In this document: in pieces, positions 12,132 to 47,357 of the stretch
Layout of the letters: each line of letters starts with the position of its first letter
Position numbering within the stretch: position 1 is the stretch's first letter
Source of the DNA: an uncultured Planctomycetales bacterium
Lineage (GTDB): Bacteria; Omnitrophota; Gorgyraeia; Zapsychrales; Fredricksoniimonadaceae
Assembly: GCA_964572155.1 (NCBI GenBank)
Contig: CAZNDZ010000001.1
Coordinates: forward strand, 582,518-646,517
Direction: 5' to 3'
DNA: 64,000 nucleotides
Made by a program: the position numbers and the translations under genes
The notes under the pieces: model-generated
Told to the model about the DNA's origin: nothing
The model's input: only the letters and a program-made list of their open reading frames with translations
Database searches by the model: none

Positions 12132-12677
12132 ATGAACAATGATCGTGCAGAACTATTTAATGTCTTAAAGACCAAGGCTTTTTTTACAGGAAAATTTATT
12201 TTATCGTCGGGCAAAGAAAGTAGTTTTTACTTAGATGCCCGCCTTGTTTCCTTGAGTCCCATTGGGGCGTACTTAACAGGTAAGATCATGTTGGATATGA
12301 TCAAAGACGATGGTGTTGATGCCATTGGTGGTCCAACGCTAGGTGCCGATCCTATGGTTGGGGCAATTGCATCGTTGAGCTATCAAGCTAAAAAACCCAT
12401 CAATACCTTTATCATCCGCAAGCAACCAAAGCCACATGGCAAACAACAGCAAGTTGAAGGGCCTGAATTAAAAGAGGGTTCTAGTGTCGTTATCATCGAC
12501 GATGTGGCAACTACCGGTAAGGCCTTTGTTGAATCTATTGAAGTATTACAAAAAATGAATATTAAGATTAAGAAGGCCATCTGCATCATTGACCGTAACG
12601 AAGGGGCAAGGGAAGCATTGGCAAAATACAATGTGCCTTTAACACCAATCTTTACGATCAATGAGTTCTTAGCATGA
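12132..12677 (+). CDS. pyrE: orotate phosphoribosyltransferase
   Basis: FKTKAFFTGKFILSSGKESSFYLDARL and the PRPP motif VVIIDDVATTGKA. I preferred the ATG at 12132 (MNNDRAELF) over the upstream in-frame ORF start at 12087. Confidence 0.85.
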   Translation: MNNDRAELFNVLKTKAFFTGKFILSSGKESSFYLDARLVSLSPIGAYLTGKIMLDMIKDDGVDAIGGPTLGADPMVGAIASLSYQAKKPINTFIIRKQPKPHGKQQQVEGPELKEGSSVVIIDDVATTGKAFVESIEVLQKMNIKIKKAICIIDRNEGAREALAKYNVPLTPIFTINEFLA

Positions 12678-13252
12678 GACGCATTGTCTTAGCTTCCGCA
12701 TCCCCGCAGCGACGCAATCTCATGAAGATCTTAGGTCTTCCTTTCGCAATAGTTCCAAGCAAGGCGCAAGAATCATCGTCGATGGCGCGTGGTGTGGCGC
12801 ATTTGGTCAAGCATAATGCGCTGCTTAAAGCCAACGATGTGGCATCTCGTGAAAAAGATGCGCTGGTCATTGGCTGTGATACGGTTGTCCTCTCAAGCAA
12901 AAAACGTTTGATCCTAAAACCCAAAGATTTAAAAGAAGCGAAGCGGAATTTAAAAGAATTGATGGCCAAACCTCATTGGGTGTATTCTGGCCTGGTTGTG
13001 ATAGATACCAAAACAGGTAAGAGCATCGTCGCTGTTGAAAAGACCAAGTTGTGGATGAATCCCTTAAGCGATGCAGCCATTGATCAATACCATGCCCTTG
13101 TTAGCCCCTTAGATAAAGCGGGTGGTTTTGACATTGAGGGTAAAGGTGCTTTGTTTATCCCGCGCATCGAAGGCTGTTACTTTAATGTGGTGGGCTTGCC
13201 GTTAGCCTCCTTGGGAAAGATTTTAGGAAAATTCGGGATAAAAGTTTTATGA
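12674..13252 (+). CDS. maf: Maf-like nucleoside triphosphate pyrophosphatase
   Basis: N-terminal LASASPQRRNLM and the Maf fold. Overlaps its neighbours by 4 nt. Confidence 0.85.
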   Translation: MRRIVLASASPQRRNLMKILGLPFAIVPSKAQESSSMARGVAHLVKHNALLKANDVASREKDALVIGCDTVVLSSKKRLILKPKDLKEAKRNLKELMAKPHWVYSGLVVIDTKTGKSIVAVEKTKLWMNPLSDAAIDQYHALVSPLDKAGGFDIEGKGALFIPRIEGCYFNVVGLPLASLGKILGKFGIKVL

Positions 13253-14025
13253 CACCGATGTTATTCATTTGTTTAAGTCTTGTGGTGTTGTTATCCGGCT
13301 GTGCTTCTGAGTTTAATACAGCGACGGGCCGTCAAGAGACATTGTTGTACGGTGAAGATAAGGAAGCCAGCATCGGTGCCTCGATTGCCTTGCAAGCTGA
13401 AAAAGAATTGAAGATGGATAATCGTGTTGATATCAATGAACGCGTTGAAAAGATTTTAGATAAGATCACCGCTGTCAGCGACCGTCATGATTTGGTGTAT
13501 ACCATCCGCGTTGTCGATGATGATGAATTAAATGCTTTTAGTTTACCGGGTGGGTATGTGTTTATCAATCGCGGGCTTATTGAAAAAGTTGATAATGATG
13601 ATCAACTAGCCGCTGTCATCAGCCATGAGGTGGCGCACATCACCGCGAAGCATGCATTAAAACGCATTCAAGGCGCTTATGGCGCAACGGCCTTAGAATT
13701 AGCATCGGCCTTATCTGGTCATGGGGCATTAGCGGCGGGGATTAGTTTGGCGGCAAACTCAATCCTTTTTAAAAATTCACGTGAAGACGAATTTGAATCA
13801 GATCGATTAGGCGTTAAGTACATGCGTTTGGCGGGTTATAATCCAATGGAGATGAAAAAAATGTTGGGCAAGTTGTTGGCTGATCAAATGAAAGGCCCGA
13901 CACGACCGCTGAATTATTGGCGTACACATCCCTTTATTCCAGCCCGCATGTCCCAAGCAAATGCAGCAGCCAAAGGTCATGCAGATTATCGTGATTATCT
14001 AAATATTACCGGTGGCAAGGAATGA
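13249..14025 (+). CDS. M48-family zinc metallopeptidase lipoprotein (BepA/YcaL-like)
   Basis: Lipobox LLSGCAS and HEXXH ISHEVAHITAKHA with a downstream E (NSREDEFESD). Confidence 0.75.
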   Translation: MTPMLFICLSLVVLLSGCASEFNTATGRQETLLYGEDKEASIGASIALQAEKELKMDNRVDINERVEKILDKITAVSDRHDLVYTIRVVDDDELNAFSLPGGYVFINRGLIEKVDNDDQLAAVISHEVAHITAKHALKRIQGAYGATALELASALSGHGALAAGISLAANSILFKNSREDEFESDRLGVKYMRLAGYNPMEMKKMLGKLLADQMKGPTRPLNYWRTHPFIPARMSQANAAAKGHADYRDYLNITGGKE

Positions 14026-14441
14026 GGTATTTCTGGTTCTTGTTGATATCGATGTTCATTATAGGCACGGTGCATGCACAATCACCTAAAGTTTGTTTTG
14101 AGAAAAGCTGTGTAGATGTTTTCATGGCTATTACCGATTCTGAAAAAATGCGTGGATTAAGTGGGCATGCACCGCTTGAAAGAAATCAAGGGATGTTATT
14201 TGTCTTTGAGAAAGAAGGAAAGCACACCTTCTGGATGCATGACATGACCTTTAATCTAGATATCTTGTGGTTAGATAAAACAGGTAAGATCGTTGATTTT
14301 AAACAAGATTTAAGTCCATGTACCCCAACTGGTTGTCCCAAGTATGGCTCCATCAATCCTGCTTTATATGTCCTTGAAGTTCCTGCCGGTTATATCAAAG
14401 CCAAGGGGCTAAAACAGGGCGACGTTGCACGCCTGCCGTAA
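14022..14441 (+). CDS. DUF192 domain protein (secreted)
   Basis: Signal peptide plus DUF192-like core (FNLDILWLDKTGKIVDFKQ...ALYVLEVPAGY). Confidence 0.65.
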   Translation: MRYFWFLLISMFIIGTVHAQSPKVCFEKSCVDVFMAITDSEKMRGLSGHAPLERNQGMLFVFEKEGKHTFWMHDMTFNLDILWLDKTGKIVDFKQDLSPCTPTGCPKYGSINPALYVLEVPAGYIKAKGLKQGDVARLP

Positions 14442-14478
14442 GTGGCATATATCTATATAATATGTTATATTTTGCCTG

Positions 14479-17400
14479 ATGTTGAAGCGATTCTTAATTC
14501 CCATTTTATGCGTTTGTTTACTACCATTGCCGCAACTCCATGCCGCAGAAGGATTTTTGTCGCTGCCTGCGCCTGGAACCATGGTGCATTTAAGCCCTTC
14601 TTTTAATCCACCGCTTTTAAAAGGGATTAAGGTGCATTTAGATGACCCATTTAAATTTGATTTCATTATCAATAATACCGTAGAGACGCGATTTATCGCG
14701 TCTGATACAACAAAATTAATCAAATATTTCCTAGCCGCCTTAACCACCCCAGAACAAGACATGTGGGTTAATTTAAGCCCCTATGAAAAAGACCGCATTG
14801 TGCCAGATGGTTTTGGCCAAACTGAAATGGGCCGTGATCTATTAGCCCAAGATTACATCTTAAAGCAAATCACTGCGAGTCTGATTTATCCTGAAGATGC
14901 CATTGGCAAAGAATTCTGGAAACGTATTTATGAAGCAACAGCTAATAAAAATATTCCTGTTAATACGTTTAATAAAGTTTGGATTGTCCCAAATAAAGCC
15001 GTGGTCTATGAGAATGTTAAAGCAGGTACAGCTTATGTTGTTGAGTCATCATTAAAAGTTTTAACAGAGCAAGACTATAGCGCAAATCAGAAGAATAATT
15101 CCCAAGATAACAATAATCTAATTGTTAAAGACGTTGTTATCCCTCAATTAACCAAAGAAGTCAATGAAGGCGCAAATTTTGCACAGTTGCGACAAGTCTA
15201 CAATGCCTTAATTTTAGCAACGTGGTATAAGAAAAAAATTAAAGATAGCATCTTATCAAAGGTTTATACCGACCAAAATAAAATTAACGGGGTCAATATT
15301 AATGATCCTCTAGAAAAAGAAAGAATTTATGCCCGCTATTTAGAAGCTTTTAAGAAGGGCGCCTTTAATTACATCAAAGACTCTGGACTGCCAAATGGTA
15401 CAACAGCCCCAAGAAAATATTTTGCCGGCGGTTTTAATTTTGCCATGACAAGTCATATGGATTATGTCACATCCATCCCAGACAAATCCCTGACGGGTGA
15501 TACAGCCATTGTTCGTATTGAATTAAATGCATTTAATGATCAAGCCATGACCGTTGAGAGTGATCATTGGTACTTTGAGATGATAGCGCATAAAGAGTAT
15601 CGGATTGTAAAGAAGCGATGGTTAAATGCGGAGATTATCCGTGGTTTAAATGATCAACGTTTAAAGAAGTATTTAGATGAGATTTCACAAGCGGGTTTTG
15701 ATTCGGTTGAAAATCTGGCGCGGTTTTCATTTGGCACATCCACAACGCATGATATTTATAAGGATTTAATGTATGTTCAAAATAGCATCCGCACGTGGGT
15801 ATTTGATTATTTAGAGGACATAGAATTTGCTAGAAACCATCAACGTAAAGATCGTTTAACTGAGCTTATCAATGTTTTAAAGCTTTTTAGTAAAGATCCA
15901 AAGCTGATCTCACATCGCATCAAGAATGTCGGTTTAAAAGAAGCTGAGTATTTAAAACGCTTGATGTTGGTGTTGATGCATTCTGATCAAACAGGAGCTT
16001 TAAGTTTTAGATTTGATGGGAATGATGTGTTGATTGACGTGATCAATCGATCAGGTTTGCTGGAAACCATTGATTATTTGCGCAACGTTCAGCAAGGATT
16101 CTACCAAGTCGATCAATATTTAGAGAATGAAGATTTGATAGAACGATTGATCCATTATTATGAGGATTTATTACAAACAAATCCATATGGAGTTTATGAA
16201 GATCTGATTGATGAAGATGTTTTTGTGAATACGCCTTTTCTAGCATTAGGAGTTCTCTATAAGTTATGGCAAGAGGGTGATTTGAAAGTTAAAGGCAACA
16301 TAGCAAGTATTCTTAATAGAGCTGTTCTAGAGAATGAGTCCTTGCAAGCGTCGTATGATCGGTTTGCAGACCTATTACCAGAAGATGCTGTGATGAAAGT
16401 CATTTTGCATGGCCCAAATGATTCGGGGAATGTGTTACCATTGAAAGATGCAGATAAAGATGAAGCCATGACTTCCCGTCGTAGTTTATTGCTGGGGGCG
16501 GGGTTTCTGACGCTAGCAGGTGCGGGGAGTGTGCTTACGCTTAATCAAACATTGAATCGCCCATACATGGAGTGGGTGGATCCAACAACATCGCAGCGTT
16601 TTGGATTTGCGGGATTTACGTATCCTCAAGCTAGGCTTATTAATGTGATTAAAGGCATTTTTGATAATCAAGGCAATTTGTCGGCGTGGGGTAAGGCGGA
16701 TGAAGTTTATGTAAGGGAGATTTTAAAAGATCTGGTTGTTAATGATAACTTTCAGCAATTTGCTAAGGATTATTATGACGCGCTTATGCGCGCTGAAACA
16801 GCTTTTAATCAAAAGCCATTTGATGTTATTGCGGTCGAGGGGCAATTGCCAGATCCAAGGTGGGATGGCAAGTCTGTTATCGTTGATTATGGCGCCTACA
16901 ATCGCATCATCGATGTGATGCATAAGACGATTGCTTCTTTATTTGAAAATCAAACAGAGCAGCTAGACCTAAAGCAATTGTCTGATGTTGTCGATGCGCT
17001 TGTTATTCCACCACATGTCTTGATTGCTCGACGCAATGCAGCCTTTGCAAAAGTTAAGATGACATATATTGAGAAGCATGTGCTTTATCATGACAATGTG
17101 CGTGACAATTTTGTTGCACAAACTTACCTCGATAGGGGTTTAGATGATGCTTACAAGGGTCAAATGGAGTTGGCTAAAAAGAGCGCATCAGCAAGATCAG
17201 CCTATATGGCAGAAATTGGAAAATCACAACAAAACATTTTATTCTTAACAAGCACTGTGCATCAAAACGATATATATGCAATTCTGTCACAGAATCAGGC
17301 CATGATCACCCGCAGGCAAGTCTTGAATTTTGGCGTTATTGCGGCTGGAAGTGTTGGTTTAGCACATTTGGAAATCATTAAAGTAGAAGAAAAAGAAGCC

Positions 17401-18558
17401 GTGAAGCCCAAGATGCCTAAAGTAACCATCATGGGCATTGCGCACCCTCCTGAAGATCTGACAGCTTACATGTTTAAGAAGTTGATCGATAAAGATATAT
17501 TGTCATTGTCTGATTTTGAGATAGTGAGGATAGCTCGTTTGTTAAAGCAATTTATCGATTCAAATCAACGCATGCTTGCGCAATACGAAACTACCATTGA
17601 TAAGTTTTCTGCATTTATGGCGCGTCATGAAGTAAGAGTTGTTGGTGTCGAGGGTGCTGTCATGTCTCAACATACAAAGCAAGGGGAAGTAATTTCGATC
17701 AATCCAAATACGATTGAACTATACAAGAAAAAGGTAGAGAGAGCTGCAAAGACCTTGTGGAGTCGAGACGAAGCAAAGAAATATCTACCAGAATTGATGA
17801 AGGTGTGTTTGCCCATGGCTCATTATCTTTCAGTCAAATACCCTAAACCCCAAGAGATAAGAATATTGCCTTTAGAAAATGGTGTAATCCTTCAAGATGC
17901 GTACATTAGAAATAAACAGATGCTAGAAGCTAGGGCATTTTTACGTGATCGATTATTCGATGCGGATCAGTTAAATGATTTGAATAAACGAAGATTAGCT
18001 AATGCCGTCGAGCAGTTAGATCTAAGCGCCGTTAAGGAATTAGAGGATTATTTTAATACGATCAAGAAGATTTCTGTGGAGCATCGCACTGCAATAAATC
18101 AAGGTGTTCAAAGACTTAAAGATGCTGTGAAAGCCATGGTTGATATTAACAAAAAACGTCAACAACATTGGGCAGATCAGATTACAGGCATTAATCAGAA
18201 GGAAATTACAGGTATAAATAAAAACGAAATTGCAGTCATTGCTAGTTCAGCATGGACTAAAGACTTGGAGAATGTATTACATGCAAAAGCCGATGCAGAA
18301 AAACAAAAGATAGAAACACAGGTAGAGTTGATCGATCAAGCAATGACGGCAACAGGGGGTATTGATTTTAATGCCGATAAGATTGACTTCGATATTAAGA
18401 ACTCCGGCGAGGATATTAAATTTAATGTCGATCCTACAACGCTTGAACGATGGAACAATGTGACGGGGTTTGTGCCGGTGATTATTAATGTAAAACCCCT
18501 GCCACAAGGCGCAGCAGGGGTTTTGGATTTAAAAGCGTTTTTAGGAATTACTTCTTAG
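14479..18558 (+). CDS. large secreted/membrane protein of unknown family (P1), paralog of 45471-47357
   Basis: Sec signal peptide (MLKRFLIPILCVCLLPLPQLHA|AEG). A ~400-aa N-terminal domain and a ~70-aa C-terminal domain are shared with P2. Two internal Met-initiated Tat-like hydrophobic segments (MTSRRSLLLGAGFLTLAGAGS; MITRRQVLNFGVIAAGSVGLA). I recognised no known catalytic motif. Confidence 0.6.
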   Translation: MLKRFLIPILCVCLLPLPQLHAAEGFLSLPAPGTMVHLSPSFNPPLLKGIKVHLDDPFKFDFIINNTVETRFIASDTTKLIKYFLAALTTPEQDMWVNLSPYEKDRIVPDGFGQTEMGRDLLAQDYILKQITASLIYPEDAIGKEFWKRIYEATANKNIPVNTFNKVWIVPNKAVVYENVKAGTAYVVESSLKVLTEQDYSANQKNNSQDNNNLIVKDVVIPQLTKEVNEGANFAQLRQVYNALILATWYKKKIKDSILSKVYTDQNKINGVNINDPLEKERIYARYLEAFKKGAFNYIKDSGLPNGTTAPRKYFAGGFNFAMTSHMDYVTSIPDKSLTGDTAIVRIELNAFNDQAMTVESDHWYFEMIAHKEYRIVKKRWLNAEIIRGLNDQRLKKYLDEISQAGFDSVENLARFSFGTSTTHDIYKDLMYVQNSIRTWVFDYLEDIEFARNHQRKDRLTELINVLKLFSKDPKLISHRIKNVGLKEAEYLKRLMLVLMHSDQTGALSFRFDGNDVLIDVINRSGLLETIDYLRNVQQGFYQVDQYLENEDLIERLIHYYEDLLQTNPYGVYEDLIDEDVFVNTPFLALGVLYKLWQEGDLKVKGNIASILNRAVLENESLQASYDRFADLLPEDAVMKVILHGPNDSGNVLPLKDADKDEAMTSRRSLLLGAGFLTLAGAGSVLTLNQTLNRPYMEWVDPTTSQRFGFAGFTYPQARLINVIKGIFDNQGNLSAWGKADEVYVREILKDLVVNDNFQQFAKDYYDALMRAETAFNQKPFDVIAVEGQLPDPRWDGKSVIVDYGAYNRIIDVMHKTIASLFENQTEQLDLKQLSDVVDALVIPPHVLIARRNAAFAKVKMTYIEKHVLYHDNVRDNFVAQTYLDRGLDDAYKGQMELAKKSASARSAYMAEIGKSQQNILFLTSTVHQNDIYAILSQNQAMITRRQVLNFGVIAAGSVGLAHLEIIKVEEKEAVKPKMPKVTIMGIAHPPEDLTAYMFKKLIDKDILSLSDFEIVRIARLLKQFIDSNQRMLAQYETTIDKFSAFMARHEVRVVGVEGAVMSQHTKQGEVISINPNTIELYKKKVERAAKTLWSRDEAKKYLPELMKVCLPMAHYLSVKYPKPQEIRILPLENGVILQDAYIRNKQMLEARAFLRDRLFDADQLNDLNKRRLANAVEQLDLSAVKELEDYFNTIKKISVEHRTAINQGVQRLKDAVKAMVDINKKRQQHWADQITGINQKEITGINKNEIAVIASSAWTKDLENVLHAKADAEKQKIETQVELIDQAMTATGGIDFNADKIDFDIKNSGEDIKFNVDPTTLERWNNVTGFVPVIINVKPLPQGAAGVLDLKAFLGITS

Positions 18559-23977: not shown

Positions 23978-24062
23978 TGGTGCCGGAGGAGAGATTTGAA
24001 CTCTCAAGGCTTTCGCCATACGCTTCTGAGACGTACGCGTATACCAATTCCGCCACCCCGGC
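23978..24062 (-). tRNA. tRNA-Leu (anticodon CAG), class II with long variable arm, CCA encoded
   Basis: The reverse complement reads GCCGGGGTGGCGGAATTGGTATACGCGTACGTCTCAGAAGCGTATGGCGAAAGCCTTGAGAGTTCAAATCTCTCCTCCGGCACCA: a 7-bp acceptor stem, anticodon loop CU-CAG-AA, and a T-arm GTTCAAATC. Confidence 0.85.
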
Positions 24063-28029: not shown

Positions 28030-28432
28030 TGGTGGAGGTGCCGGGGATCGAACCCGGGTCCTTGAGTTTCTAAGGAGAGACGTCTACATGCGTAGTCTGT
28101 TTACTGAAATCTCGCTTTAAATCCCCCAACAGACAGGAAGGATGTTAAAGCCAGCTCTATAGGATCTCATCCTAACGTTAAGAGCAGCCATTAGGACCAG
28201 CCTGCTAGTGACAGTTTATCTTAGTAGCAGACATTCTAAGTAAACTGGCTAAGCTACTTGAGCTTAGACGAGGGCAGGAGCTTCGGCACCCTTTAAGATG
28301 CTTTCAGCTTCAGCCACGACGTTGTAGTTGTCGTTTGCGTTTAATTTGTGCCTGGATTGTTAACGGGGCCGACCAAGCATCCCCGGCATGCATTCTAACC
28401 TCGAGCTAAACAAGTCGAGACCAATCACCCCC
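28030..28432 (-). ncRNA. ssrA: tmRNA (SsrA); ends approximate
   Basis: 5' end GGGGGUGAUUGGUCUCGAC; 3' tRNA-like end GACCCGGGUUCGAUCCCCGGCACCUCCACCA. Predicted tag ORF from resume codon GCA: ANDNYNVVAEAESILKGAEAPALV*. Confidence 0.85.
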
Positions 28433-45470: not shown

Positions 45471-47357
45471 ATGTTCCAAAAGCACATCTGTTTAATCATT
45501 AGCCTATGTTTATTGCCCTTGCCACAAGTACATGCAAATGAAATGGTTTTGCCTGTGCCGGGCAAGATGGTTCAATTAAGCGCTGCCTACCAGCCCGCGA
45601 TCCTCAAAGGCTTGACCGTTCATAAAGATAATCCTTTCATGTTCGACTTTTTAGTCGATGTAGGCCAAGACAAGTTACAAGGTGAGGCGTTAAAGCAAGA
45701 AGGCGATAAGTTCATTCAATATTTTCTAGCAACATTGGCTGTTCCTGAAAAAGATCTTTGGGTTAACTTAAGTCCTTATGAAAAAAACCGCACGGTGCCA
45801 CAAGCCTTAGGCCAAACAGCCTTGGGGTCTGACCTTTTAGCTCAAGACTATATTTTAAAGCAATTAACCGCAAGTTTGATTTATCCCGAAAAAGAATTGG
45901 GTAAAAAATTCTGGGACAACGTCTATCAAAAGACACAAGCCAAGTATGGCAAAGTCAATATCCCAGTGAATACCTTTAACAAAGTTTGGATCATGGCGGA
46001 CAAAGCCGAAGTGTACGAACACAATCAAACCGCCTTTGTAACGGACACCCATTTAAAAGTCATGTTAGAAGAAGATTACCTAGCCGCAAACAAAAACACC
46101 GTAGAGACGCGATTCATCGCGTCTCAAACATCAAATAAAACAACCCAAAACATCATCAAAGCAAGCGAAGCTTCCCTGTTGTCCAACAAAGTGTTGCAGG
46201 AAATCATCCTTCCTGAAATCGAGCACGAGATCAACACTGGAAAAAACTTTGCCACCCTAAGACAGATTTTTAATGCCATCATTTTAGCGACGTGGTACAA
46301 AAACAATTTAAAGCAATCGCTATTAAATGACGTCTATTCCAATCAAAACAAAGTCAAAGGCATCGACCTACAAGATCAAACCATCAACCAAGAAATTTAC
46401 GAGCGCTATGTGCAAGCTTATAAAAAAGGCGTGTTTAATTACGTTAAAGACGGTGCACAGCCTAAGAAATATTTCTCCGGCGGTGTTGTCGGCCGCGTGC
46501 CATTGACAACAATCAATAAAGCGATGGCGTCACAAAAGGCAATTGATGATCCTGTTCATCAAATTGTATCATTTAAAGTAAGGTTAAATGATGCCGCCAT
46601 GACAACAAGTGAGGCCATAGTAGAACTCATGGACATGTTGGTTAGTAATGATGTTGTTGATGATCAGATTATGGATGATATTGCGGTATATCTCATACGG
46701 CTGTATCGATCACATAAAGATAAATTAGAGATATTATTCCCTCAATTAATAGTGCATCCAAATTATAAGCATTTAAAGAACAAGATACAGGCCCTTTATG
46801 TTGCAACGGGTTATCCCACAAATGAGATGGGAAAAATATCAAAGGCATTGGTGGATTTTAATTGCTGGCATTATTGTTGGAATAATCTCTTAAGCTTAGA
46901 AAGGCAGAGGAAATTTTTCTATAATAAGGCAATGGCAAGCACAGTAAAAGGTAAGGGATTGTTAAAGATTTTAAGCGCTGGTGTTGGTATGGCGGTGGCA
47001 AGTTATTTTATTCCCGAAGATGGTCACAAGTTTTTATTCTTATATGCCGGTCTAGGGGTTACGGCGTCAGGCTGGTTGCTTTGGCATGCTTTAAATGCGC
47101 CTAAAGCAGATGAAGCGGCCAATGATTCTCGCTTCAATCAAGATCAGGCCATGAATGGTGGTATTGATTTTAAGGATAGTGCTCTTAAAACAAAATTACG
47201 TAAAGATGGATTGGGTGTGAGTTTTGCGGTGGATTCTGAGTTTATAGAAAGGGTCAAACGTGATGGTCTCGAGGGGTTAACGCCGGTTATTGTGCACATT
47301 GAGCCGGTGATCAATATTGCACCTCTGTTGGGTCTTCCTGTTAAAAACAAATCTTGA
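45471..47357 (+). CDS. secreted/membrane protein (P2), shorter paralog of the 14479-18558 protein
   Basis: Sec signal MFQKHICLIISLCLLPLPQVHA|NE. N- and C-terminal domains are collinear with P1 (WVNLSPYEK...DLLAQDYILKQ.TASLIYPE; IPVNTFNKVWI; QAM..GGIDF). Has a C-proximal bilobed hydrophobic hairpin (LLKILSAGVGMAVASYFI-PEDGHK-FLFLYAGLGVTASGWLLW). Confidence 0.6.
   Translation: MFQKHICLIISLCLLPLPQVHANEMVLPVPGKMVQLSAAYQPAILKGLTVHKDNPFMFDFLVDVGQDKLQGEALKQEGDKFIQYFLATLAVPEKDLWVNLSPYEKNRTVPQALGQTALGSDLLAQDYILKQLTASLIYPEKELGKKFWDNVYQKTQAKYGKVNIPVNTFNKVWIMADKAEVYEHNQTAFVTDTHLKVMLEEDYLAANKNTVETRFIASQTSNKTTQNIIKASEASLLSNKVLQEIILPEIEHEINTGKNFATLRQIFNAIILATWYKNNLKQSLLNDVYSNQNKVKGIDLQDQTINQEIYERYVQAYKKGVFNYVKDGAQPKKYFSGGVVGRVPLTTINKAMASQKAIDDPVHQIVSFKVRLNDAAMTTSEAIVELMDMLVSNDVVDDQIMDDIAVYLIRLYRSHKDKLEILFPQLIVHPNYKHLKNKIQALYVATGYPTNEMGKISKALVDFNCWHYCWNNLLSLERQRKFFYNKAMASTVKGKGLLKILSAGVGMAVASYFIPEDGHKFLFLYAGLGVTASGWLLWHALNAPKADEAANDSRFNQDQAMNGGIDFKDSALKTKLRKDGLGVSFAVDSEFIERVKRDGLEGLTPVIVHIEPVINIAPLLGLPVKNKS

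Follow-up and report, generated by a model that had tools for sequence, protein, structure and literature searches.

Two genes in a 64,000-nucleotide (nt) stretch of the Omnitrophota contig CAZNDZ010000001.1, here called P1 and P2, appear to belong to a very large family of modular, exported proteins that has so far been seen only in metagenome-assembled genomes (MAGs) of Omnitrophota. This overall picture is given an even chance of being right. The stretch, referred to as the window, covers positions 582,518 to 646,517 of the contig. All family members examined begin with a Sec-type signal peptide, which is followed by a conserved N-terminal domain (N-domain), a cargo region that varies from protein to protein and a small conserved C-terminal domain (C-domain); the cargo is punctuated by a four-residue motif, D-x-A-M. 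Omnitrophota, a widespread phylum of ultra-small bacteria, are believed to live as predators or parasites and have giant multi-enzyme proteins. A literature search found no description of this arrangement of N-domain, cargo and C-domain, and it is designated the capped family below.

A family with constant ends and variable cargo

Both open reading frames (ORFs) lie exactly where a preliminary description of the window had placed them, and the proteins resemble each other at both ends. By BLASTP, P1 amino acids (aa) 1–347 match P2 aa 1–386 (44% identity, E = 1e-105), as do the final ~70 aa of the two proteins (31% identity, E = 2e-6). The shared ends noted in that description are therefore real, with some adjustment of their sizes: the conserved N-terminal part covers ~300–320 aa, not ~400, and the C-domain itself ~65 aa. 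The ~690-aa 'insertion' that P1 was thought to carry relative to P2 did not hold up, as the two middles are unrelated by sequence, and so an 'equivalent place' in P2 has no basis in homology. The pair is also far from being the whole family, which has thousands of members.

A search with P1 returned more than 4,600 significant proteins, all matching only the first 22–28% of P1, for the most part at 55–72% identity. Among the matches listed, protein lengths range from 770 to 2,325 aa (P2, with 628 aa, is shorter), almost every member ends in the same C-domain, and identity to the P1 N-domain is 49–72% overall and 62–72% for most (119 other members). The few named matches are proteins of 'Candidatus Omnitrophica' MAGs. 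Scanning species-representative genomes with six P1-specific peptide patterns gave 327 loci, and the best 80 of these are all in MAGs, 50 labelled Omnitrophota and 30 'uncultured Planctomycetales' (third-party annotation assemblies). One MAG holds at least 12 family loci, and several 13-kb stretches carry two genes, some of them in tandem. P1's own 1.34-Mb contig carries at least 10 of its paralogs, which show 57–72% identity to P1 (P2, 44%), compared with 49–72% for homologs elsewhere.

The N-domain proper closes at an invariant K-Y-F-(S/A)-G-G (aa 313–318 in P1, aa 333–338 in P2). It has ~60 invariant columns, and P1 and P2 both carry them (LPAPG...WVNLSPYE...FNKVWI...ATWYKK...KYFSGG). Third codon positions within it are 38–51% identical while amino acids are 51–73% identical, both between paralogs and between genomes; synonymous sites are thus saturated and the protein conserved, indicating old copies under purifying selection rather than gene conversion. 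An AlphaFold2 model of the domain, built with 75 sequences, is reasonably confident, with a predicted local distance difference test score (pLDDT) of 76.9 and a predicted template modelling score (pTM) of 0.77. Its elements are, in order, two short strands, three helices, a long two-stranded beta-hairpin (~13 residues per strand) and very long helices, and the modelled fold appears to match nothing known in PDB or BFVD.

The C-domain has a consensus of ~60 aa, kGGIDLtpdkMnLqtQN.GeeIKFHlDPAML.QLQNAPGFVPVIINIQPmtDLr.FLGL, with a core that can be written in short as GGIDL...IKFHLDPAML.QLQNAPGFVPVIINIQP...FLGL. That of P2 is divergent, with 27% identity to the consensus (E = 7e-7). A search with the consensus retrieved short contig-end fragments only, which carry no information on architecture. 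Duplicated C-domains, suggested by interior 'GGID' matches, were rejected because these are chance matches inside enzyme domains.

Neither end could be assigned to a characterised family, in agreement with the preliminary description: profile hidden Markov model (HMM) searches, sequence and profile searches of PDB, and Foldseek fold searches all ended without an accepted match. Searches of Pfam, NCBIfam, PADLOC and PHROGs with full proteins and module fragments gave nothing above cut-off, only sub-threshold noise. Neither phmmer nor the family profile found a PDB match in either conserved end, and profile matches to huntingtin, dynein and SMC were rejected because they were located in junk cargo columns. 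Foldseek comparison of two AlphaFold2 models with PDB and BFVD gave nothing at E<0.001. Matches to ClyA/NheA/SmhA, colicin Ia and HU/IHF recurred, but with a TM-score ≤0.28 they were not accepted as identifying the fold; the ClyA-family pore-forming toxins among them (NheA, SmhA, MakE), which came up repeatedly among the top matches at E 0.4–5, probability ≤0.07 and TM-score ≤0.14, serve as a lead only, and the N-domain beta-hairpin is not hydrophobic. The two domains represent two new domain families that are missing from current databases.

Between these ends the cargo spans ~200 to more than 2000 aa. In other members it includes Pfam domains of S-adenosylmethionine (SAM) methyltransferases, PRK, HAD, GNAT, NUDIX, PGK, guanylate kinase, HPr, PP2C, PPDK_N, HEAT repeats, glycosyltransferases, sigma-70 region 4 and DEAD helicase, and the enzymes are of cytoplasmic type. 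An all-against-all BLAST of 195 cargo regions produced only 266 high-scoring segment pairs, so most cargo is unique. The 931-aa middle of P1 belongs to this category: a word-indexed search through 5.8 billion proteins found no relative, and neither did phmmer run exhaustively against 1.84 billion representatives. An internal repeat was also considered and rejected, as the three P1 modules and the P2 middle show no mutual similarity. The long P1 frame is nevertheless truly coding, because its 931 cargo codons contain no stop in frame (48–95 in the other five frames), its GC pattern by codon position is of coding type and its amino-acid composition is normal.

The junction motif and internal hydrophobic segments

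Cargo regions contain 353–357 copies of D-x-A-M (in 153–155 members) against ~16 expected, a 22-fold enrichment. D, A and M are each needed individually, the variants N-x-A-M, S-x-A-M and D-x-A-Q being enriched 6.7-, 3- and 2.9-fold, and conservation does not extend to the flanks. The first 60 aa behind the N-domain contain about 150 of the copies, usually arranged as two 'strand + D-x-A-M' repeats, and the 30 aa ahead of GGIDL contain ~67; another ~130 are interior, frequently as doublets (7–10 aa apart) or following 'AQL'. The 'QAM' ahead of GGIDF, described earlier as belonging to the C-terminal domain, is part of this general punctuation. Within the window, P1 and P2 together account for five occurrences of the motif and the remaining long ORFs (~15,600 aa) for two. 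Its positions coincide with module boundaries: 25% of the homology blocks shared between cargo regions start within −5 to +20 aa of a motif, compared with 4.5% for random positions, and in six of eight members examined, Pfam domains begin 13–51 aa beyond the nearest motif on their upstream side. A DNA-level cause (GCCATGAC) was rejected, as across the family the codon for Ala shows only mild bias and that for x is free, which places the constraint on the protein.

One family gene (L041, starting at 976) carries a single in-frame TAA at a linker (~2270–2295, ...GEKD*AAMKN...), and the downstream frame continues for 1628 aa with four further D-x-A-M motifs. This suggests that split and fused forms can interconvert at a junction. 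The same pattern is seen for other short family ORFs in MAGs (L051, L078 and L047), each with a downstream ORF that continues it. Pseudogenes, errors of assembly and forms naturally split at the junction motif are all conceivable explanations.

The hydrophobic and twin-arginine translocation (Tat)-like segments reported for P1 and P2 are present in both proteins and recur in other members. They have Kyte-Doolittle means of 1.5–1.9. Each P1 segment has an RR pair (motif cores TSRRSLLL and ITRRQVLN) ahead of a Gly/Ala-rich hydrophobic stretch, and lacks both the F-L-K of the Tat consensus and a clear A-x-A. Comparable segments follow the motif Met in other members (DRAM-SSDMGRRQFLSKLG..., DAAM-LTRRDVVASGLAG...). 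Some have the textbook twin-arginine look (NRRGFLKRAATGALVVTALPVVAGKALAQ, LDRRGFLKMAGILAASLALPGFAQG, DRAMSSDMGRRQFLSKLG..., DAAMLTRRDVVASGLAG...), and some homologs fit the Tat consensus fully, with RRGFLK and an A-x-A site; only individually convincing cases are cited here, and a loose regular expression for internal Tat-like segments performed no better than in shuffled sequences (13 against 10.8) and was dropped. Ordinary signal- or anchor-like stretches are also found internally in other members. The TAT_signal models (Pfam PF10518, NCBIfam TIGR01409) gave no match at E≤10 with full proteins or with fragments starting at the internal Met residues, in a test of low power that also failed to call a canonical-looking homolog (P0069).

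By a crude hydropathy count, one segment is the commonest number among the members that have any, and an even-number rule for transmembrane (TM) segments was not supported. Two otherwise different members, P0081 (aa ~960–1010) and P0108 (aa ~462–505), have in common a conserved two-lobe hydrophobic hairpin module, NFMPWERHASR(I/V)LLAGT.LLTP.ALF..VPERIV.TVDTVLLAVIL.LEL, so at least some hairpins are conserved, exchangeable modules.

P1 and P2 in the window

The features of the two genes are collected in Table 1. The signal peptide of P1 has no lipobox, and the family consensus is a hydrophobic core followed by A-x-A/Q (the slash marks the predicted cleavage point). P1 has a GC content of 38.7%, lower than any other 4-kb stretch of a window that averages 41.6% (standard deviation 1.3), while P2, at 40.2%, is unremarkable; the suspected AT-richness of both genes thus applies, to a modest degree, to P1 alone.

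Table 1. Features of P1 and P2, in window coordinates, with residue numbers of the respective protein.
Feature	Position	Strand	Description
P1	14479..18558	+	1359 aa; family member, three-module cargo without relatives
P1 promoter-like site	14442..14471	+	GTGGCA, 18-nt spacer, TG-extended TATATT
P1 signal peptide	14479..14544	+	Sec-type, MLKRFLIPILCVCLLPLPQLHA/AE
P1 N-domain	14563..15432	+	aa 29-318, LPAPG ... KYFAGG
P1 palindrome	14680..14708	+	GTAGAGACGCGATTTATCGCGTCTGATAC, VETRFIAS; N-domain variable loop 1
P1 junction DQAM	15538..15549	+	aa 354-357, N-domain linker/module A
P1 module A	15550..16458	+	aa 358-660; without relatives
P1 junction DEAM	16459..16470	+	aa 661-664
P1 segment 1	16468..16542	+	aa 664-688, MTSRRSLLLGAGFLTLAGAGSVLTL; starts at Met of DEAM
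P1 module B	16543..17292	+	aa 689-938; without relatives
P1 junction NQAM	17293..17304	+	aa 939-942; N replaces D
P1 segment 2	17302..17370	+	aa 942-964, MITRRQVLNFGVIAAGSVGLAHL; starts at Met of NQAM
P1 module C	17371..18333	+	aa 965-1285; without relatives
P1 junction DQAM	18334..18345	+	aa 1286-1289, directly before C-domain
P1 C-domain	18355..18555	+	aa 1293-1359; GGIDF...IKFNVDP...GFVPVIINVKPL...FLGI
P2	45471..47357	+	628 aa; divergent, short family member
P2 N-domain	45549..46484	+	aa 27-338
P2 palindrome	46101..46129	+	GTAGAGACGCGATTCATCGCGTCTCAAAC, VETRFIAS; N-domain variable loop 2, position not homologous to P1 copy
P2 cargo	46515..47153	+	four junction motifs
P2 junctions		+	NKAM aa 349-352, DAAM aa 374-377, NKAM aa 485-488, DQAM aa 558-561
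P2 bilobed hairpin	46956..47093	+	aa 496-541, GLLKILSAGVGMAVASYFI-PEDGHK-FLFLYAGLGVTASGWLLWHAL; starts 8 aa after NKAM, at the end of the small P2 cargo
P2 C-domain	47157..47354	+	aa 563-628

In the three neighbourhoods studied (P1, P2 and a further family gene, P0026), family genes are solitary amid co-directional housekeeping genes, each with its own conserved promoter-like site, and no recurrent partner gene was seen at these loci. P1 is flanked by Maf/M48/DUF192 genes and by pyruvate-dehydrogenase genes, its 3′ neighbour being lpdA, which is convergent. P2 lies between an exonuclease gene and the gene of a SPOR-like protein (the 3′ neighbour). P0026 is flanked by genes for a CCA-adding enzyme and metC, and on its 3′ side by an unannotated 272-aa ORF and then housekeeping genes. 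Two genes 5′ of P1, the ORF at 13249–14025 resembles an M48 metallopeptidase (a label given by eye from HEVAH) and has a lipoprotein-type signal, LLSGC; it is the only protease near P1. Precomputed Pfam annotation lists Peptidase_M48 as cargo in P0027 and P0106, with a weak sub-threshold match in P0063. The presence of an M48-like ORF near P1 and of M48 cargo in the family is probably a coincidence.

The promoter-like site of P1 stops 7 nt 5′ of the ATG. A corresponding sequence, TTGCA(T), a ~17-nt spacer and TGnTAYATT, is kept upstream of P1 (14442–14478), P2 (45434–45470) and four family genes from other genomes; the sites end 7–9 nt before the ATG, and there is no Shine-Dalgarno sequence. 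So short a distance suggests leaderless or near-leaderless transcripts, and the P1 mRNA is probably of this kind. The family is possibly co-regulated through this common promoter-like sequence. Many adjacent genes overlap by ATGA (e.g., 13249/13252 and 14022/14025; in 12674–14441 and elsewhere in the window), and a recognisable Shine-Dalgarno sequence precedes few window genes. The genome appears to rely on translational coupling and on initiation that is leaderless or lacks a Shine-Dalgarno sequence. The sole Rfam matches in the window at the gathering threshold are a tmRNA (169.6 bits; 28030–28432, minus strand) and a tRNA gene (23981–24062, minus strand).

The N-domains of P1 and P2 each contain, in frame, a 28-bp palindrome (consensus GTAGAGACGCGATTAATCGCGTCTCTAC) that forms stable RNA hairpins (z −4 and −7.6). 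These are its only two copies in the window. It also occurs in the paralogs P0005, P0010 (two copies) and P0021, and there is a further copy at L003 2645–2662. As a family-specific signal it was rejected, since the element is generic: more than 120 metagenome contigs carry it between unrelated flanks, and none of the 149 copies there is in a family gene. It resembles repetitive extragenic palindromic (REP) and Rickettsia-palindromic elements in being a short, widespread GTAG...CTAC palindrome that lies in frame in coding sequence at variable loops; it differs from REP-type elements in that no RAYT transposase or element family was identified here and the window has only two copies.

Interpretation and comparison with known systems

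The favoured explanation is that the capped proteins are exported carriers, with constant ends for handling and swappable cargo modules; it is about evenly balanced between right and wrong. The predicted Sec signal peptide would take the chain across or into the inner membrane, and the constant ends would act as common handles for export past the inner membrane, envelope anchoring or recognition by a partner. The middle would be interchangeable cargo, much of it suited to sites with ATP, SAM and nucleotides, such as a host or prey cell or a cytoplasm-facing loop. D-x-A-M would mark the module joints, where modules could be exchanged or concatenated and the chain possibly cut. The Tat-like segments would be signal or anchor sequences that head modules now situated inside the chain, and in the producer cell their role might at most be that of a membrane anchor or hydrophobic hairpin, without a function in Tat export. 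That modules carry their own leading signal or anchor has some support from the segments that start at the Met of D-x-A-M and by the split of L041 at that point, and the ancestral fusion proposed in the preliminary description gains some support from the same observations.

Several points weigh against exported carriers. Export is a prediction from sequence, secretion genes are absent beside P1, P2 and P0026, and the neighbourhoods do not pinpoint a candidate partner or pathway for the N- and C-domains. Cytoplasmic-type, cofactor-dependent enzymes behind a Sec signal would be odd unless they act in another cell or on the cytoplasmic side. The C-domain and linkers were modelled poorly (pLDDT <50), so there is no structural argument for these parts. 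D-x-A-M may be a site of cleavage, a structural element or a recombination scar. By the crude hydropathy count, hydrophobic segments occur in only ~25–50% of members, often in odd numbers, making them an optional property of the cargo rather than part of a constant machinery.

The proteins could also be polyproteins, a tentative possibility that we place on the unlikely side. A dedicated protease, or the precursors themselves, would cut at D-x-A-M and free modules beginning at about the Met, so that a module such as MTSRRSLLLGAG... would regain a working N-terminal signal or anchor, in the producer's envelope or in a target cell. A four-residue motif that is 22-fold enriched in inter-module linkers and has unconserved flanks is the typical signature of a processing site; doublets 7–10 aa apart are frequent, signal-like segments start exactly at the motif Met, and for the giant proteins of Omnitrophota, cutting into pieces by C39 and S8 peptidase domains has been proposed (10.1101/2023.11.21.568195). 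However, the P1, P2 and P0026 loci link no protease to the family, and the motif is also found within the compact C-domain (HLDPAML), where cleavage seems unlikely. Alternatively, the segments could be true stop-transfer or TM helices of inner-membrane proteins, with modules alternating between periplasm and cytoplasm: module B of P1 would be cytoplasmic, and the hairpin of P2 would return the chain to the same side. Lengths of 17–25 aa and the hydropathy of the segments suit this, two segments each in P1 and P2 would leave both conserved domains on one side, the cytoplasmic-type enzymes require cytoplasmic cofactors, and there is an analogy to the predicted 'SP+TM' giant proteins of the phylum. 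We nonetheless consider this arrangement unlikely, given that such a segment is missing from half to three quarters of members, that with a single segment, the commonest number where any is present, the side of the membrane on which the C-domain lies would differ between members, and that the segment calls come from a crude hydropathy scan only.

Two further explanations are both judged very improbable. If the conserved gene ends served mainly as recombination handles for cassette exchange or antigenic variation among paralogs, rather than encoding functional domains, one would expect the many paralogs per genome, the constant ends with unrelated middles and the homology blocks that start at junction motifs. 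Yet N-domain synonymous sites are saturated while the protein is conserved, and paralogs of the same genome are no more alike than homologs elsewhere (57–72% against 49–72%); this speaks for selection on the protein and no recent homogenisation of the DNA. Slightly less credible again is the proposal that internal Met residues act as starts, so that the long ORF would give rise to separate, genuinely Tat-exported products. In both P1 segments and several homologs a Met directly precedes (T/S)-x-RR and a hydrophobic region, and the TAA of L041 lies just ahead of a junction (...GEKD*AAMKN...). Internal ATGs, however, have no Shine-Dalgarno-like sequence or convincing sense-strand promoter before them, and P1 contains fewer promoter-like sites than shuffled sequences do (6 against 14.3). 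The D and A upstream of the Met are conserved and Q can replace M, so the constraint acts on a continuous polypeptide. F-L-K and A-x-A are missing in P1, and the Met-started fragments have no TAT_signal match. Internally initiated products, put forward in the preliminary description, thus find little support, and its likening of the P1 segments to twin-arginine signals fails on their location, 664 and 942 residues from the N-terminus; the missing F-L-K and the lack of a TAT_signal match also speak against it.

Returning to the exported carriers, a bolder version is conceivable but doubtful: the family would be the cargo set of an Omnitrophota-specific deployment system, joining at D-x-A-M would have built the 10–150 thousand-aa (kaa) giants, and internal signals would be activated by cleavage. 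The N- and C-domains would then be universal handles for secretion, surface display or delivery to host or prey, and D-x-A-M a processing and/or module-joining code, a proposition held just as doubtful. With at least 10 copies in one genome (main contig of 1.34 Mb), strictly conserved handles, exchanged cargo and a simple junction motif, the capped family is a concrete candidate for an effector or surface repertoire of Omnitrophota, and possibly supplies building blocks of the giant proteins. The N-domain, C-domain and D-x-A-M provide defined markers for annotation, proteomics and localisation. If true, the proposed behaviour of the cargo would bear on how Omnitrophota act on their hosts.

The giant proteins of Omnitrophota, or 'Archaeovorins' (West-Roberts et al. 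2023; Nielsen & Lui 2026), are similar to the capped family in phylum, signal peptide, unannotated N-terminal region, scattered hydrophobic or TM segments, and methyltransferase, HAD, GNAT, NUDIX, PPDK_N, HEAT and glycosyltransferase domains. They carry the same cargo-domain repertoire (10.64898/2026.06.07.730766; 10.1101/2023.11.21.568195). They differ in size, 10–147 kaa compared with 0.6 to >2.3 kaa, and in their SecA_DEAD, C39 and dockerin domains, which Pfam does not find in P1 or P2; the papers on giant proteins do not mention the fixed N-domain, the fixed C-domain or D-x-A-M. Since signal peptides, TM-like segments and cargo repertoire are shared, the giants are the closest biological relatives of the capped family.

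Twin-arginine signals are alike in having a Met, a short polar stretch, RR and a Gly/Ala-rich, moderately hydrophobic region, whereas the P1 segments lie deep within an uninterrupted ORF that bears a Sec signal. The likeness to chlamydial Inc proteins raised in the preliminary description holds in part. P2 has a bilobed hydrophobic domain with two ~18–20-aa lobes and a short polar loop, but P1 has two separate single segments ~260 aa apart and hairpins occur in a minority of the family. Inc proteins are specific to Chlamydiae, are secreted by the type III route and lack a Sec signal peptide; the capped family's consensus, like P1 and P2 themselves, has a Sec-type signal, the organism is not a chlamydia, and no homology was detected.

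Cargo proteins with a type IX C-terminal domain (CTD) also combine a Sec signal, variable domains and a small C-terminal domain, which in the capped family could act as a sorting signal. They belong to another phylum, and the capped proteins have an additional conserved 300-aa N-domain; no NCBIfam or Pfam match of any kind, including to CTD models, was found in the C-terminal region at E≤1. Polymorphic toxins (Rhs/YD, CdiA, LXG, MIX) share a constant trafficking part, a variable, exchanged payload and many paralogs. The capped family differs from them in being constant at both termini with the payload in the centre, in carrying a Sec signal and in cargo that is housekeeping-like or without relatives instead of toxic, and no immunity gene lies 3′ of P1, P2 or P0026; no relationship to these toxins in sequence or fold was found. 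Polymorphic toxins, type IX CTD cargo and autotransporters are known examples of a constant trafficking part joined to a variable payload, and the capped family falls outside each of them on defining features. It is best filed as a new form of this constant-handle, variable-cargo kind, built from two domain families that are absent from the databases.

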